Assembly (NCBI GenBank): GCA_018238625.1
Contig: JABCSY010000087.1
Coordinates: 1-18,115 of the forward strand
DNA from: Promethearchaeota archaeon
Lineage (GTDB): Archaea > Asgardarchaeota > Lokiarchaeia > Sigyniarchaeales > SOKP01
DNA length: 18,115 nucleotides
Direction of reading: 5' to 3'
In this document: piece by piece, positions 720 through 16,937 of the stretch
How the letters are laid out: every line of letters begins with the position of its first letter
Numbering within the stretch: position 1 is the first letter of the stretch
Made by a program: the position numbers and the translations under genes
Notes under the pieces: generated by a model
The model's database searches: none
What the model saw: the letters and a program-made list of their open reading frames with translations, nothing else
Told to the model about the DNA's origin: nothing

Positions 720-2393
720 TTGAAAATGGCTGTAGCTTTCATGCGTAAATTGGAGGAAGAACCAGAGACTTACGATTCGAAGTTTACTTCACTTACGAAA
801 GGAGTAAATGTTAAAGTTCATAATTGGGTATTGGATCAAATTCAATCAGATCAATCAATCTTAGAAATTGGGTCTGGAACGGGCTCATTAGCTTCAAAAA
901 TGGTTTCAAAAGGAAATGTTGTTGTTGCAATTGATAATAACATTCAAATGATTAATTTTGCTAAGCAAAAATACTCAGATACTTTAGAAAATGGTGCGCT
1001 ATTGTATCGATTAGCTTCATTTACGGATTTACCCGTTGAAAAAAGATCCGTAGATGTAATTGTCAGCACATTTCTATTATCAGAACTTCGACCGTTAGAG
1101 CAACAAATATTTCTTAGGAACGCTTGGAAAGCGTTAAAACCAAATGGTCGCTTGATATTAGCCGCAGAGTTTGTTCCATCAGGGTTTTGGAAGGTCAGTT
1201 TTAAAATAAAAAGGTGGTGGTTCAAAAAAAAACTGCGTCGCCTTCGTTTAAAAAGTACTTTTTTAGTTAAATGGTTTTTCAATTACATTGAACCAATAGG
1301 TTTTAGGATCGGAAACCAGAAGAAATGGAAGCACGGTTCAATTCAAGCAATTGAACTACTAAAAATTAACGATAACGGAGAAGACGAACCCGATTATTAT
1401 CGTCCCAAAACAAAGAAGTTTAAAGGAATTATTTCGCAATTGAGAATATATCGATGCCTTTTTACTGGACAGATAGATAGAGTTCCAATAGAACCAGGAA
1501 TATATAAATCTGGTAATCCCAATAACAACTCTCCTATTATCGTAACGGCAAATTACGAGTATACATACATAAAATTAATGCGCGATTTACAAGGTATTGA
1601 TGCGTGGGTTTTATGTTTGGATTCTAATGGAATTAACGTATGGTGCGCTGCTCGCGGAGATGATTTTGGCAACAAACAGCTACTAGAAGCCATTGAAGCA
1701 ACAGATATTCGAGTAATTTCAGAGAAAAAGACTTTAATTCTCCCCCAACTCTCAGCAGGAGGGGTTGCTGTACCTCAATTACCAGAAAAATTTCCTTTCA
1801 AAGTAAAATACGGTCCTGTTTGGTCAAAAGATCTAAAGCAATTTTTATCCGAGCGACCAGTCCGAAAACCAGATTCTATGAAACTTGCCAAATTTACTTT
1901 ATCTCATCGAATTCGCGCTGGAATCACGCACACTACCTTTTTATTCCGAAAAATCTTTTTAATTCCAATAATCGCAATTTTACTTTCGTTTTTCGCCTTA
2001 AATAATAATGCTATCATATGGTGGCTTGGAGAATTAGTAATATGGATCGTTTTGTCAAATGTAATAATATCGATCTTCTTTCCACTCTCTAAATTTAGCC
2101 GTAAATTTATTGTTAAAGCTATATTTTTTGGCTGTCTTAGCATATTTTTTATAGGGGCAATTTCTTGGATATTTCATAGTTCGTATCTTTATTTACTCTC
2201 GAACTTAGTTATATATTTCTGGATAACATTCTTTTCTACGATGTCTTTTAGCGGATACACGATGTCAACCAGTCCGAAAGAAATTCAAGCAGAATATCCT
2301 GTTTTTAGAAAAATAAATCTTACTCTAATAATTTTAGTCGTAATTCTATTAGGAATAAACATAATATTTTTTATGTTAAATATAATAAATTAA
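720..2393 (+). CDS. Fusion: class I SAM-dependent methyltransferase + HgcA-like (CdhD/CFeSP-family) corrinoid domain + ~5 TM helices (start TTG 720 or ATG 726)
   Basis: MTase motifs LEIGSGTG (861-884), VVAIDNN, DLP...VDVIVS, LKPNGRLILAAEF. HgcA-type motifs PIEPGIY..GNP..NSPIIVTANY, WVLCLDSNGINVWCAARG, LILPQLSAGGV, KYGPVWSKDL, then a hydrophobic C-terminus with SFSGYTMSTS..EI..E (cf. HgcA NFTGxxxxTS..GVxxE). Confidence 0.9.
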   Translation: MKMAVAFMRKLEEEPETYDSKFTSLTKGVNVKVHNWVLDQIQSDQSILEIGSGTGSLASKMVSKGNVVVAIDNNIQMINFAKQKYSDTLENGALLYRLASFTDLPVEKRSVDVIVSTFLLSELRPLEQQIFLRNAWKALKPNGRLILAAEFVPSGFWKVSFKIKRWWFKKKLRRLRLKSTFLVKWFFNYIEPIGFRIGNQKKWKHGSIQAIELLKINDNGEDEPDYYRPKTKKFKGIISQLRIYRCLFTGQIDRVPIEPGIYKSGNPNNNSPIIVTANYEYTYIKLMRDLQGIDAWVLCLDSNGINVWCAARGDDFGNKQLLEAIEATDIRVISEKKTLILPQLSAGGVAVPQLPEKFPFKVKYGPVWSKDLKQFLSERPVRKPDSMKLAKFTLSHRIRAGITHTTFLFRKIFLIPIIAILLSFFALNNNAIIWWLGELVIWIVLSNVIISIFFPLSKFSRKFIVKAIFFGCLSIFFIGAISWIFHSSYLYLLSNLVIYFWITFFSTMSFSGYTMSTSPKEIQAEYPVFRKINLTLIILVVILLGINIIFFMLNIIN

Positions 2394-13642: not shown

Positions 13643-14245
13643 ATGAATATTATGAATGACGACGAAATGCTTTCAGCTGTAAGAACATTCGCATATAATA
13701 ATTCTGAAAAAGACGATCTCCATGGCTTTAAACATGTTGGGCGAGTACTTAATTTATGTGTACAAATTGGGACTGCTTTAAATGCGAATTTATTGATAAT
13801 TAAAATAGCTGCCTTACTTCACGATGTTGGTAGAATTCATGAGAAAAAAAATGATGCAAAGAATCACGCTGAAATATCCGCTGAAATGGCTGAAAAATTT
13901 TTACAAAAAACTAACTTCAACATTACTCTTGACAATATTGAAAATATCCTTCACAGCATTCGAGCACATTCTTTTTCGAATAACATAAAACCTAAAACTC
14001 TTGAAGCAAAAATATTATCGGACGCAGATAAACTGGATGCGCTTGGAGCAATAGGTTTATACAGAACAATTATATATTCATTTAAATTGAAAAATGGTGG
14101 AATAGAGAAAGTAATTGAACATTTAGAAAACAAAATCTTGAAATTAAAGGATGGATTGTACTTAGAAGGCTCTAAACAAATCGCAGAAGAGAGAAGTAAA
14201 ATAATTGTAGATTTTTATGATAAAATAAGAGAAGAAATAATGTAG
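13643..14245 (+). CDS. HD-domain metal-dependent phosphohydrolase
   Basis: HGFKHV.RV, AALLHDVGR, HAEIS, AHSF, DADKLDALGAIG. Confidence 0.9.
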   Translation: MNIMNDDEMLSAVRTFAYNNSEKDDLHGFKHVGRVLNLCVQIGTALNANLLIIKIAALLHDVGRIHEKKNDAKNHAEISAEMAEKFLQKTNFNITLDNIENILHSIRAHSFSNNIKPKTLEAKILSDADKLDALGAIGLYRTIIYSFKLKNGGIEKVIEHLENKILKLKDGLYLEGSKQIAEERSKIIVDFYDKIREEIM

Positions 14246-14256
14246 ATAATGACGAT

Positions 14257-15498
14257 TTACTTGAGTTTCAATATCATGCTCAAAAGAATTGGAAATTTCT
14301 CTTCTGTGCCCCAGATGACGTAAATTTTGTCGTCAATAGGAATCGCGACGTGCTTAGCAAGAGTAATCCAACCACTTCCAACATTCTTAGCCGCATCGCT
14401 TCCCGCTTTAAATCTCAAATACATAATGGCTCCTAAGTAATCTTGGATTTCTATGTCTTCAACTTTGATATCTTCTAAATCTTGAATAATATATTCTTTA
14501 TTTTCTTTATCAGGTTGTAAACTATTCCAAATTTTCTCGTACGACAATTGTAAAGCTGCCCGAATCACAATCTTATTTTCTATAAGCCTATCGTATTCCA
14601 AAATTATAAGACCGCAATCTTTATCTACACCTCTTATTCCAAGCGTGTTAAAGTCGTACGATTTTTCGCCATAGGCCTGAAAGTCTTTTTTAGCTTCAAC
14701 AATATCAATCCATCCATTTTCAAGATCCTCACCCATTATATACCGAAAACTTTTTAATATATTTAATTCTTCCTCCCTATCTTGAATAATCTCATCGATT
14801 AAAGCATTTAGTGGCCTTGCTACATATATTTGTATCCCGCTTGGAGTTCTTGATACCTTTTCTACCCAATAATTTTTAACTAAACGATCAATTATTCGAT
14901 ATATTGTAGTTCTTTTGATTTCCAGTTCTTTATTTATATTTCCAATTTTATCTCCTTTCTCTCCTTTTTTCAACAAAGCTAAATAAACTCTAGCCTCTTC
15001 TAAGCTTAAACCTGCTTTTAGTAAGCCTAATCTTTGCAAATTTTGGGTTTCATCGAGCAAAACTTTTGGAGTGGACCACTTTATTTCCTCAACTTTTCCT
15101 AAAGGCGTATCAGGTTCTAAATAAGGTTTTTTTGATCTAAATTTTCCTAAAGTTCTTGATGCTTCCATTAGCCCCAGATGGATCTGTCCTTCAGGTTCAA
15201 TTTTACAAATAATTTTTCGTTCTTCTTCTTTAAACCCAATAACGCTCCCCTTCTTATCTAAAGTACTAGCAACAAGCCTCTCAGTAGAAATTTGAAGAAT
15301 TATATACTTAATTCCAGAAATAGTGATATATCTCTCATCTAAATTTCGCCAAGTCGTGTTTATGGTTTCTATATCGCCACTAATATCCCAATTATCTGAT
15401 GAATATACAATCTTATTTTCATCTTCAATAATAGCTGTTGATATTATCTTAGAGTCGTGTTTTAAATATTTATCAAGAATAGATATGTATTTTTCCAT
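14257..15498 (-). CDS. Profilin-like domain + TrmB-type winged HTH + unknown C-terminal domain
   Basis: aa 1-~122: TAIIEDENKIVYSSDNWDI...ITISGIKYIILQISTERLVAS...KGSVIG (Asgard profilin pattern). aa ~155-250: GLSLEEARVYLALL...INKELEIKRTTIYRIIDRL..YWVE...IYVARP (TrmB HTH pattern). Confidence 0.8.
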   Translation of the reverse strand: MEKYISILDKYLKHDSKIISTAIIEDENKIVYSSDNWDISGDIETINTTWRNLDERYITISGIKYIILQISTERLVASTLDKKGSVIGFKEEERKIICKIEPEGQIHLGLMEASRTLGKFRSKKPYLEPDTPLGKVEEIKWSTPKVLLDETQNLQRLGLLKAGLSLEEARVYLALLKKGEKGDKIGNINKELEIKRTTIYRIIDRLVKNYWVEKVSRTPSGIQIYVARPLNALIDEIIQDREEELNILKSFRYIMGEDLENGWIDIVEAKKDFQAYGEKSYDFNTLGIRGVDKDCGLIILEYDRLIENKIVIRAALQLSYEKIWNSLQPDKENKEYIIQDLEDIKVEDIEIQDYLGAIMYLRFKAGSDAAKNVGSGWITLAKHVAIPIDDKIYVIWGTEEKFPILLSMILKLK

Positions 15499-15542
15499 TA
15501 TTTTATTACAACCTCTTCTTCATATATTTGTTTTATTTTATT

Positions 15543-15553
15543 AAAAAAAAAAA
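15543..15553 (-). terminator. Oligo-T (T11) tract after actin
   Basis: A11 on the + strand, starting 20 nt past the actin stop. Confidence 0.45.
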
Positions 15554-15572
15554 TTAATTATGTTTTAAAAGT

Positions 15573-16691
15573 TTAAAAACATCGATGGATTACCCCTGGT
15601 CCAATCTCTTTGTATTCACGGCGCGTTATCCACATTCTGCTAAATGTTTTCAGAGAACTTAATATTGAGCCGCCAATCCAAACAGAATACATTCTTTCAG
15701 GAGGAGAAAGTATTCTAACATCGATCGATTCTGGAACCAATTCTTTTATTTCTTTTGTTAAACGCTCTTTAATACCAGGAAACATAGTAGACCCTCCTGA
15801 AAGAACAATGTTACTGTAAAGATCTCGCCTTAGGTCTACATCACATTCAGAAATGGCATCTACAAGGATATTATCTAAAGGATCTAATTCCTTTCCTAAT
15901 ACTGATGGATTAAAAAAGCTTTCTGGTGCTAAAAATCTTTCAATTCCTACATTGATAACCTCTCCATCGGGTAGCATAAAACTTTTCTCCATTCCAGAAA
16001 CTTTCTTTGAGAGAATCATTTCTTTTTCTGGATCAGTGGCTACATAGCATAGCTTCTCCTTAACATCTCTTACAATTTCTTTTTCAGCCGAGGATGTAAA
16101 GGAATATCCCTTTTGCCTTAATAATCTCTGCAAATAATTCGTTACATCTCGACCCGCAAGATCAACTCTCTGAATTGCGTGACTTAAAGCAAAACCTTCA
16201 AAAATCGGTACGATATGAGACACCCCATCTCCAATGTCTATTACACAACCTGTAGTCCTCCCAGAAGCGTACAGCGATAAAATAGCCTGAGTTGCAATGT
16301 AAAGTGCTGGTACATTAAAAGTCTCAAACATAATTTCCGCTATTTTTTCTCGATTCATTCTAGGATTTAAGGGTGCTTCCGTTAACAATACAGGATGCTC
16401 AGAAGGATCAATTCTAAGATCGGTGTAGAAAGTGTAATGCCAAATTTTCTCCATAGCGGGCCAGTCCTCAACAATTCCATGCTCTATAGGAAACATTAAT
16501 CGCATCAGACCTTTTAATTGCATAGCTTCTTCACCAATGTAAAAATCCCGTGAATAATGCCTTACATCTGGTAAAACAACGCCATATTTTGGTTCGCCAA
16601 TTACCGTTGGAAAAACAGAACGAGGTTGGTCTTCTCCAGCATATCCATTCTTAGATATCCCCGTACCATTATCTAAAACAACTGGCTTCAA
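15573..16691 (-). CDS. Asgard actin (Lokiactin-like); true start may be ATT at 16712
   Basis: [99 protein letters not shown]-terminus. Confidence 0.97.
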
Positions 16692-16899
16692 AAAATTCCC
16701 ATTAACTGAAATTTAAACCCCACCTTTTTTCATATTTTTTATCACATTAACTTTTTTAGGGACTTTAATATTATCTCGGCTAAGTAAATAATTTCTTTGT
16801 TGAAGATCATCTAAAGCTATCTACTATTACGTGCTTCTCGAGTTGTTTATTAAATCCCATCAAACCTTTTTGAGTTTGTTATTATGATAATAATAAAAC

Positions 16900-16937
16900 T
16901 AATATTTAAATCTTTGTCACCATATCGTGACAAAGAT
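16900..16937 (-). promoter_or_regulatory. Perfect 11-6-11 inverted repeat abutting a TATA-like box upstream of actin
   Basis: ATCTTTGTCAC-CATATC-GTGACAAAGAT (16910-16937); on the minus strand it runs straight into TTTAAATA (16910-16903). Confidence 0.6.

Follow-up and report, generated by a model that had tools for sequence, protein, structure and literature searches.

What might a protein do that carries a profilin at its N-terminus and a TrmB-type winged helix-turn-helix (wHTH) further along its chain, and whose gene lies directly behind that of an actin? This question is raised by a locus in an 18,115-nucleotide stretch of DNA from a Promethearchaeota archaeon, referred to here as the window. 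A preliminary description had placed the corresponding open reading frame at positions 14257 to 15498, 74 nt behind the actin stop codon, and had proposed a one-component regulator that reads monomeric actin. The coordinates and the gap agree with the sequence, and both genes lie on the minus strand, in the following layout:

13643 to 14245, plus strand: HD-domain gene, convergent with the regulator gene (Pfam HD, E = 7.8e-20)
14257 to 15498, minus strand: profilin-TrmB fusion gene, 413 amino acids plus stop codon, ATG start (open reading frame list and translation)
15499 to 15572, minus strand: spacer of 74 nt, with a T11 tract at 15543-15553 and a GAGGT Shine-Dalgarno-like motif ahead of the regulator ATG
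15573 to 16712, minus strand: accessory Lokiactin-type actin gene (Pfam PF00022, Actin, E = 2e-127)

The T11 tract, which the preliminary description had also mentioned, has its first base 20 nt past the actin stop codon; a T-run of at least five begins 5-24 nt past this codon in 18 of the 19 short spacers of related loci. The transcript of the regulator may thus be separate from that of actin. At other loci, a small open reading frame is found between the actin and regulator genes; the genome studied here has none (tblastn best E = 0.027; no hmmsearch match at E up to 1). The HD gene is a conserved neighbor, with tblastn matches in 37 sources that include the window, the window's own copy (L048) and a second cassette (L050); we draw no functional tie between it and the regulator. 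Together with an acyl-CoA synthetase gene, it flanks the cassette at a conserved chromosomal place. Rfam gave no match at gathering scores across the whole window.

The fusion protein can be divided into five segments:

15145 to 15498, minus strand: profilin domain, residues 1-118 (phmmer, family profile, Foldseek)
15049 to 15144, minus strand: linker, residues 119-150, conserved yet modelled as disordered
14818 to 15018, minus strand: TrmB-type wHTH, residues 161-227 (Pfam PF01978)
14752 to 14811, minus strand: long helix behind the wHTH, residues 230-249 (AF2 model)
14260 to 14640, minus strand: C-terminal alpha/beta domain, residues 287-413, unannotated, with no Pfam match

The head of the protein is a genuine profilin homologue. 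The Asgard profilin hallmarks that had been noticed, TAIIEDENKIVYSSDNWDI and ITISGIKYIILQISTERLVASTLDKKGSVIGF, are both found in the translation, and the profile and structure searches carried out per domain agree on the assignment, by sequence homology as well as by predicted fold, a central antiparallel sheet flanked by helices from the two termini. Using phmmer, residues 2-117 were matched to the Asgard profilins in the PDB (5zza_P, E = 1.8e-8; 5zzb_A, 1.1e-6; 5yed_A, 5.3e-6; 7pbh_A, 3.6e-4), and the family profile found 5yed_A with an E value of 4.4e-13. The AF2 model, with pLDDT values of 80-88 in the blocks covering residues 21-100, had 5zza_P as its best PDB match in Foldseek (E = 4.8e-9, TM-score 0.83 by target length, rmsd 1.8 over 116 columns); the top six rows were Asgard profilins, and eukaryotic profilins came next. 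The nearest kin of the head are extended profilins of about 205 amino acids from the same GTDB family (40% identity, E = 2e-27); most of the 122 family genomes (out of 134) with any match have N-domain-only matches to such proteins. Stand-alone Asgard profilins, reportedly described by Akil and Robinson in 2018, are represented by structures of Loki profilin-1 (5YED/5YEE), Loki profilin-2 (5ZZB) and the Odin (5ZZA), Thor (7PBH) and Heimdall (6YRR) proteins. They have the fold and detectable sequence homology in common with the fusion head and, as predicted for the latter, the same actin surface. However, they are single domains of 120-150 amino acids, whereas the profilin studied here heads a 413-residue protein of the DNA-binding type.

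The head is followed by a linker whose pLDDT falls below 50 between residues 126 and 148; in an alignment of 40 homologues, Y126 is nevertheless invariant, and conservation reaches 90% or more at K123, P125, L133-K135, K140, W141, T143 and P144. The TrmB-type HTH of the preliminary description was recovered by Pfam (PF01978, residues 161-227, E = 1.1e-10, with 41.6 bits where 25.6 are required), and this domain is present in all of the best 120 of 163 homologues. Judged from the alignment, the wHTH is the best conserved part of the protein, with an invariant K195-R196-x-x-I199-Y200 and invariant I202 and L206 in the 40 homologues. Helix 230-249, which reappears as helix 3-26 in the separate model of the C-terminal domain, is likely a coiled-coil dimerisation helix of the TrmB type; the TrmB architecture, with an amphipathic helix of this kind behind the wHTH, has been described (PMC4158304). 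TrmB, TrmBL1/Tgr and TrmBL2 from Euryarchaeota, like the fusion protein, have a PF01978 wHTH and then a long helix, and the fold search with the complete fusion model also lists TrmBL2 (5bpd_D, E = 6.2e-4). In contrast to the N-terminal wHTH of the TrmB family, that of the fusion protein is internal. The family also possesses a sugar-binding effector domain; no such domain is found in the fusion protein, either among the fold-search rows listed or by Pfam at E up to 1, and the presumed ligand would be a protein, actin, taken up by the added head.

As to the C-terminal half, a PsbP/Mog1-like alpha/beta domain had been suggested by eye. The domain itself was borne out (about residues 287-410, pLDDT 78.6 and pTM 0.72 when modelled alone), but its likeness to PsbP and Mog1 is only weak: Foldseek gave PsbP with an E value of 8e-3, and in VIA PsbP had a Z-score of 5.1 and Mog1 one of 4.6, while the best row reached 6.0 and Apa-like proteins also fell within the range of 4.6-6.0. 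Pfam had no match in this half at E up to 1, and a search of the ESM Atlas with residues 280-413 gave no usable match. An SH3 domain at profile positions 242-275 was considered and rejected (E = 0.067-0.43, insignificant). The same C-terminal domain is present in TrmB paralogs of about 290-300 amino acids that have the HTH and are devoid of a profilin; hence, the fusion event equipped an already functional protein with a head. The C-terminal domain may sense an unrelated ligand.

The linkage to actin is not a peculiarity of a single genome. Among the 43 loci with a near-full-length match to the fusion protein, an actin gene lies directly upstream on the same strand in 42; the exception (L036) has the regulator without actin, and in one further locus (L042) the cassette actin carries a deletion and a frameshift. 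The range of the fusion is narrow and does not extend across Lokiarchaeia: the full-length protein was found only in a single GTDB family, where about 44 of 135 genomes have it, and in none of 265 other Asgard genomes. Even within the family, roughly two genomes in three lack the cassette. Searches for mobile-element relatives gave nine pattern matches in viral contigs, none of which was confirmed, and no plasmid match. Our literature searches found no publication describing a profilin-TrmB fusion family, and no profilin-HTH protein occurs in the 11 of 14 supplementary files searched of the Lokiactin co-immunoprecipitation study of L. ossiferum (PMC13716822), an organism absent from the related loci.

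Which actin does this protein accompany? The preliminary description had spoken simply of actin; this has to be revised, as the neighbor is an extra paralog and not the main Lokiactin. The two actins of the host share about 85% identity, and the cassette actin is fast-evolving, whereas the main Lokiactin is near-invariant; the tree behind this assignment is a quick one. The L042 actin was left out of the alignment since it contains stops. When the genomes of the genus were cross-tabulated, two or more Lokiactin-type genes were present in 20 of the 21 genomes with the regulator and in none of the 21 without it. The cassette actin is an accessory paralog found only where the regulator occurs. 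Its start is given in the open reading frame list as TTG at 16691; the true start is probably the ATT at 16712, behind GGTGGGG. Of 41 loci, at least 15 have ATT as the first codon of the conserved x-SVNGDF N-terminus; three have ATG and three TTG.

Upstream of this start, three elements can be recognized:

16713 to 16902, minus strand: long 5' leader between TATA box and actin start (three length classes among the loci)
16903 to 16910, minus strand: TATA box TTTAAATA of the accessory-actin promoter (from the sequence)
16915 to 16932, no strand assigned: palindrome TGTCAC-N6-GTGACA, a candidate operator, separated by 4 nt from the TATA box downstream of it

The strict palindrome exists in a single copy in the 4,290,242 bases of its own genome. 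It is present in 28 of 40 stretches upstream of the cassette actin and is found nowhere in the remaining 459,179 nt of these loci; the composite pattern GTGACA-N2-4-TTTAWATA occurs in 36 of the 40 stretches and once in the remainder. Across 42 genomes of the genus, 11 strict sites were counted: eight upstream of cassette actins, one at the syntenic position in a genome that lacks the cassette, and two within genes. A reversed control pattern yielded one site in the same genomes, and none of 17 main-actin promoters contains the palindrome. Related loci have between one and three half-sites, and the window has one palindrome. We assign this element to the fusion protein by way of its adjacency and its family-typical shape, and its binding by the regulator is hence putative. 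The candidate site is similar in shape to the TGM site (TATCAC-N5-GTGATA) of the TrmB-family members TrmBL1/Tgr, and it likewise lies next to BRE/TATA; in that family, a position upstream of BRE/TATA is associated with activation (PMC4158304). One subgroup of loci has the operator variant TGTCGC/GCGACA; inspection by eye of this and the T198H subgroup gave no co-variation of the recognition helix with the operator variants. Since a few bases of the expected BRE also belong to the proximal half-site, repression is about as arguable as activation. The codon aligned with actin residue 1 lies 73-87 nt from the TATA box in 13 loci, about 125 nt from it in five and 179-226 nt in 22, the window included. 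In nine of the leaders, RNAalifold found a long-range helix with compensatory changes in 6 of 17 pairs, a weak signal; when all 22 long leaders were aligned together, no common structure emerged.

A complex prediction with the neighboring actin, which had been proposed as a check, placed the head on the canonical profilin site, with ipSAE values of 0.67, 0.68 and 0.67, versus 0.00 for the best of three controls. At least 93% of the contacts were common to the runs, and the pLDDT of the partner was at least 78. The ipSAE mark used was reached by 116 of 157 solved complexes and by 2 of 215 mismatched pairs, counts that are rough, as our own alignments were used. In the model, head residues 66-80 (IILQISTERLVA) and 105-121 face actin residues 164-171, 284-287 and 349-372, which we take to be the barbed-end cleft used by profilins. 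Segment 66-80 ranks with the best conserved stretches of the head, with Q69 at 90% or more. The profilin head is thus predicted to contact an actin monomer at this cleft; the pass of the complex model may stem from its likeness to solved profilin-actin complexes.

We suggest that the fusion is a one-component regulator that responds to actin and acts on the accessory actin cassette, a function that we consider probable by a modest measure. The proposal of the preliminary description thereby stands in part, carried by the profilin head, the synteny, the complex model and the candidate operator on the actin promoter. In such a mechanism, the Asgard profilin (residues 1-118), joined by its conserved linker to the wHTH, the dimerisation helix and the C-terminal domain, would be part of a dimer that binds the 18-bp palindrome abutting the BRE/TATA of the upstream actin gene. 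The head would take up monomeric actin at the barbed-end cleft, so that the size of the free actin pool would alter the action of the regulator at the promoter. The regulator itself would probably be made at a low level by read-through past the T-run, and a feedback loop would thereby be closed. As a guess, the actin-free form would activate and the actin-bound form would not, because the site is fixed just upstream of the TATA box as in TrmBL1/Tgr-activated promoters. Depletion of monomers would then lead to the supply of extra actin, a homeostatic logic resembling that of MRTF-SRF. In animals, this system places actin genes under the control of the G-actin pool by means of RPEL motifs and a MADS box. 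The two would have in common a regulator with a module for binding actin monomers and an actin gene as target; the parts, profilin and wHTH here, are unrelated, and Pfam finds no RPEL repeats in the fusion protein at E up to 1. Unlike MRTF-SRF, no nucleus is involved, and the target would be one accessory actin cassette.

Alternatively, the protein might control the accessory actin gene as any TrmB-type regulator would, with a head that has lost its affinity for actin and acts as a general sensor or as a module for dimerisation or partner binding, while the C-terminal domain reads the signal. In these archaea, profilin-like domains of this type are indeed fused to Ras-family GTPases (P0159, P0177, P0217, P0238), to SIR2 (P0157), to an LCM methyltransferase (P0166) and to a zinc ribbon (P0211), and these many fusions are compatible with a broader role of the domain as well. 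The C-terminal domain, common to profilin-less paralogs, resembles a small alpha/beta sensor fold. The Pfam Profilin model (PF00235) does not match the fusion protein at E up to 1; stand-alone profilins encoded in this genome escape it likewise. Moreover, actin co-crystals exist for profilins matched by the head (5zza, 5zzb, 5yee), the segment modelled on actin is well conserved, and actin is the partner gene in nearly every locus. We regard a head that has lost its actin as unlikely.

The profilin head and the conserved actin linkage could also be read as those of a factor chiefly concerned with actin assembly, which would tune the polymerisation of the accessory actin while the HTH and C-terminal domain localise or oligomerise it without gene control; the GTDB family has many extended profilins whose tails are of other kinds. 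The best conserved part of the protein is the wHTH, however, and a family-typical palindrome sits on the neighboring promoter. Transcription regulators are normally scarce, and the T-run ahead of the gene suits such a protein and not a stoichiometric actin buffer. This role is, in our view, very improbable.

Also very improbable, and by a little the least probable reading, is a DNA-to-filament adaptor analogous to ParR in parC-parM-parR, which would clamp the unique site and with its head hold, feed or ride the growing barbed end of accessory-actin filaments. The cassette would then serve to place or transport DNA, promoter control being a by-product. In that system, a site, an actin-like gene and the gene of a DNA-binding adaptor follow each other; ParR also controls the promoter, and its tail occupies the barbed-end cleft of ParM. 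The cassette has the same order, a site unique in the genome, a dedicated extra actin, and a head predicted to lie in the cleft where the ParR tail sits, so that its adaptor, too, would touch actin and regulate the promoter. In contrast to ParMRC, the cassette actin is eukaryote-like, and the stretch upstream of actin in the window holds one palindrome and no centromere of iterated adaptor sites. The cassette occupies a conserved position on the chromosome, next to the genes for the HD protein and acyl-CoA synthetase, has no plasmid or viral-contig relatives in our searches, and is missing from most genomes of its family; the distance of 2-4 nt between palindrome and TATA box is fixed, which points to a promoter function.

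What is new here is the linkage to actin in 42 of 43 loci, the restriction to one family, the accessory nature of the actin, the unique palindrome on its promoter, and the model of the head-actin complex. We know of no earlier prokaryotic case of a transcription factor that directly reads the state of a eukaryote-like actin cytoskeleton. If true, the actin-responsive regulator would be the first such case and a second, independent invention of the logic of MRTF-SRF, and Asgard cell biology would gain a defined set of promoter, operator and regulator. Were the protein to link DNA to filaments, a ParMRC-like machine built of eukaryote-type parts would exist in the closest archaeal relatives of eukaryotes. 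Some Loki-type archaea keep, beside their near-invariant main actin, a second, fast-evolving and presumably regulated one, which raises the question of the role that this extra filament system plays in their cells.

The reading frame that the preliminary description placed at window positions 14257 to 15498 is present on the minus strand and encodes a regulator of 413 amino acids, whose translation contains the quoted profilin motifs. An actin gene lies directly upstream on the same strand, as had been claimed, with a gap of 74 nt, and a GAGGT motif precedes the regulator ATG within this spacer. The neighboring features of the window are:

13643-14245, plus strand: HD-domain gene, which converges on the regulator gene
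15543-15553, minus-strand spacer from actin to regulator: T11 run
15573-16691, minus strand: actin gene (Pfam Actin, E 2e-127)

Profile and structure searches against solved Asgard profilins bear out the profilin-like character of the N-terminal domain (the head). Residues 2-117 match, by sequence alone, 5zza_P (E 1.8e-8), 5zzb_A (1.1e-6), 5yed_A (5.3e-6) and 7pbh_A (3.6e-4), and a profile built from 40 regulator homologues improves the profilin match to E 4.4e-13. The AlphaFold2 model of the regulator (mean pLDDT 68; head blocks 80-88) finds its best PDB match in Odin profilin as crystallized with actin (5zza; E 4.8e-9; TM 0.83 on the target), followed by other Asgard profilins and then by eukaryotic ones. 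The TrmB-type winged helix-turn-helix was likewise correctly recognized; it spans residues 161-227 (PF01978, E 1.1e-10, exceeding the curated cut-off) and is followed in the model by a long helix (residues 230-249). Linker residues 119-150 are disordered in the model yet strongly conserved, with Y126 invariant and several nearby residues conserved to at least 90%. Pfam gives no match to the C-terminal domain (about residues 287 to 410), which is modeled confidently on its own (pLDDT 78.6; pTM 0.72). PsbP and Mog1, to which it had been likened, both recur among its matches, but these are all weak and do not establish the likeness: Foldseek gives E 8e-3 for PsbP, and the VIA-align scores (Apa, Z 6.0; PsbP, Z 5.1; Mog1, Z 4.6) fall short of a Z near 8, the level taken to mark more than a common arrangement. 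No TrmB sugar-binding domain was found in the C-terminal part by Pfam or among the fold matches listed.

When the neighboring actin (26-row alignment) was modeled together with regulator residues 1-125 (40-row alignment), the complex scored 0.67, 0.68 and 0.67 versus 0.00 for all three controls; the runs had at least 93% of contacts in common, with a partner pLDDT of at least 78. The mark applied is reached by 116 of 157 solved complexes and by two of 215 mismatched pairs, a calibration that is only rough for models built, like these, on custom alignments. In the predicted interface, residues 66-80 and 105-121 of the head meet residues 164-171, 284-287 and 349-372 of actin; this actin surface is the cleft used by profilins, which lies between subdomains 1 and 3. 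Since profilin-actin complexes have already been solved, the pass demonstrates likeness rather than binding by the regulator head. A rival reading, an ordinary regulator whose profilin head has lost actin binding, is one that we regard as unlikely.

The pairing with actin is not unique to this genome. Among 47 related loci from genome contigs (43 near-full-length matches and four fragments), a same-strand actin lies directly upstream in 42 of the 43 by tblastn; the exception, L036, has an unrelated opposite-strand frame where actin is expected, and the actin of locus L042 has both a frameshift and an internal deletion. The actin-regulator spacers form a short class of 36-92 nt (19 loci, together with L031, in whose spacer N occurs) and a long class of 225-602 nt (23 loci). 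In 18 of the 19 short spacers, the actin stop is followed by a run of at least five T; in many long spacers the run comes after a small open reading frame instead, so that it sits just before the regulator gene. Of the 23 loci with a long spacer, 19 have this conserved frame of 60-70 codons (M-x-R/K-I-K-x-I-D-G-I-P-C-I ... L-K-K-K-F-G-E), which has no Pfam match and is absent from the genome of the window. Examples, besides about 16 more loci, are:

L005, 5750-5950
L013, 5744-5941
L021, 5744-5941

Recurring neighbors place this cassette of actin and regulator at a conserved chromosomal position: tblastn detects the HD-domain gene in 37 sources (among them the window, its copy L048 and a second cassette, L050), an acyl-CoA synthetase gene in 18 and a HEAT-repeat gene in 14, the window being counted for both of the latter. 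Elsewhere in the window, positions 720-2393 (plus strand) encode a 557-aa protein in which, unusually, a SAM methyltransferase domain is combined with a stretch resembling the delta subunit of CO dehydrogenase/acetyl-CoA synthase (PF03599; E 7e-14) and with a C-terminal part that is hydrophobic.

The genome harboring the window has three Lokiactin-type genes, located in the window and on contigs C16 and C138. The C138 actin is 85% identical to that of the window and has no adjoining regulator; the C16 actin (86% identical) belongs to the second cassette:

L050, contig C16, 236-2720: 381-aa actin and 429-aa profilin-TrmB protein

Two full-length cassettes occur in this genome only, out of about 44 with a cassette, and contig C16 may come from a co-binned relative, as the estimated contamination of the bin is 7.6%. 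A cross-tabulation of 42 genomes of the genus (Lokiactin-type matches at E 1e-120) found at least two such matches in 20 of the 21 genomes with the regulator, the sole exception being a genome whose locus contains only part of the cassette actin; no genome of the 21 without the regulator has two (15 have one, six have none). A quick maximum-likelihood tree shows hardly any divergence among the 18 unlinked actins of the genus (end branches 0-0.007), against branches of 0.02-0.14 for the 40 linked actins; the linked and unlinked labels part with one change each, at a split support of only 56% and with main actins sampled from one genus. Together, the cross-tabulation and the branch lengths indicate that the linked actin is an accessory, faster-evolving paralog.

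Aligned DNA upstream of the linked actins contains a palindrome, TGTCAC-N5/6-GTGACA, that ends 2-4 nt before a TTTAAATA TATA box and is a candidate operator. Their positions in the window are:

16915-16932: palindrome (N6)
16903-16910: TATA box

The strict palindrome and the pattern GTGACA-N2-5-TTTAAATA each occur once in the 4,290,242-base genome. Compared with the rest of these loci (459,179 nt), 40 stretches of 260 nt upstream of actin contain the strict palindrome in 28 cases (versus 0), a relaxed form in 33 (versus 0) and the proximal half-site plus TATA in 36 (versus 1). The 42 genomes of the genus hold 11 strict sites, against one for a reversed control pattern; eight lie upstream of a cassette actin, two lie inside genes, and the eleventh belongs to a genome that lacks the cassette, where it directly follows the HD gene known from other genomes as a neighbor of the cassette. 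The last looks like a relic of deletion. All of 17 main-actin promoters lack the palindrome, and the C16 cassette has a degenerate version. The palindrome is similar to the TGM site (TATCAC-N5-GTGATA) recognized by TrmBL1/Tgr of the TrmB family; the review PMC4158304 associates sites upstream of BRE/TATA with activation and those downstream with repression in this family. Adjacency and family habit suggest that the regulator may bind the palindrome.

At least 15 of 41 loci have ATT as the first codon of the conserved accessory-actin N-terminus (x-SVNGDF), three have ATG and three TTG. In the window, the start is probably the ATT codon at 16710-16712 (minus), 5 nt behind GGTGGGG; the TAA stop of a six-codon upstream frame (ATG at 16733) abuts it. 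The leader between TATA box and start codon (window 16713-16902, minus; 190 nt) is long in about half of the cassettes. RNAalifold predicts for nine leaders (alignment A4) a long-range closing helix with compensatory changes in six of 17 pairs, at an energy of only -4.16 kcal/mol; the leader has no Rfam match.

The best-supported reading, and on balance a probable one, is that the protein is a one-component regulator that responds to actin and specifically serves the accessory-actin cassette. The actin-free regulator would activate the accessory-actin promoter, a sign favored because the site keeps a fixed spacing to the TATA box; repression may apply instead, since the site partly overlaps the expected BRE. 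Given the winged helix and the palindrome at the neighboring promoter, we find it improbable that the protein is purely an actin-assembly factor, and a ParMRC-like adaptor linking DNA to filament seems slightly less probable still.

In a search of 400 genomes from the phylum, matches spanning the full length of this putative actin-responsive regulator (positions 1-412, E below 1e-110) come only from the GTDB family of the window; the matches listed amount to 44 of its 135 genomes, plus one copy truncated by the end of a contig, in four of 13 genera. No such match turned up in the 265 genomes of other families, which gave only four weak partial ones. The cassette is optional, since complete cassette-less genomes occur in the same genera. 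The titles of several records assign the source MAG to Hod-, Hermod-, Odin- or Thorarchaeota (NCBI records with the first three names: loci L004, L006, L010, L020, L023, L029, L030); the restriction to one GTDB family suggests that these labels are unreliable rather than a sign of wide distribution. Apparent traces of cassette loss lie at:

L054 (genome G236, contig C4), 1501-1518: the intact palindrome behind the HD gene
G225, contig C4, 86025-86372
G200, contig C1, 80550-80810
G248, contig C132, 20995-21324
locus L044

They include C-terminal fragments of the regulator, two with in-frame stops, in genomes without a full-length copy among the matches listed.

A word-index search yielded 163 relatives, the best 120 of which (318-474 aa; 48-97% identical) all carry PF01978 and bear only names like 'helix-turn-helix domain-containing protein'; in an exhaustive representative search, 145 clusters reached E 0.001 or better. 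Two groups among these clusters are informative. One consists of fusions of profilin-like domains to other proteins, described below; members of the other (P0138, P0139, P0140, P0146, P0153; about 290-300 aa) combine the TrmB helix-turn-helix with the same C-terminal domain and lack the profilin. In its own genome the head is closest to three profilins: two extended ones, 200 and 210 aa long (40% and 32% identity), which have in common a conserved C-terminal tail (L-K-x-E-[IV]-x-x-F-[LV]-[ED]-W-I ... Y-N-E-L), and one of 129 aa. The extended profilins are encoded at:

L049 and L051 (contigs C22 and C119), 1474-2076, plus strand, and 1222-1854, minus strand, respectively

Matches of any kind occur in 122 of 134 family genomes, and for most of these the matches listed include N-domain-only ones to proteins of extended-profilin length (open frames mostly 200-230 aa). 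In the simplest history, an extended profilin would have been joined to an already existing TrmB-like chassis. Full-text searches of literature available without subscription, including passages of 10.1101/2020.10.19.343400, PMC13716822 (with 11 of its 14 supplement files), PMC12993045, 10.64898/2026.10.28.762692 and PMC12962969, yielded no description of a profilin-HTH fusion or of a regulated Lokiactin paralog. Profilin-like domains related to the head are also fused to Ras-family GTPases, SIR2, leucine carboxyl methyltransferase (LCM) and a zinc ribbon (fusion proteins P0157, P0159, P0166, P0177, P0211, P0217, P0238), and the fusions to enzymes hint at a broader set of actin-linked enzymes in Asgard archaea.
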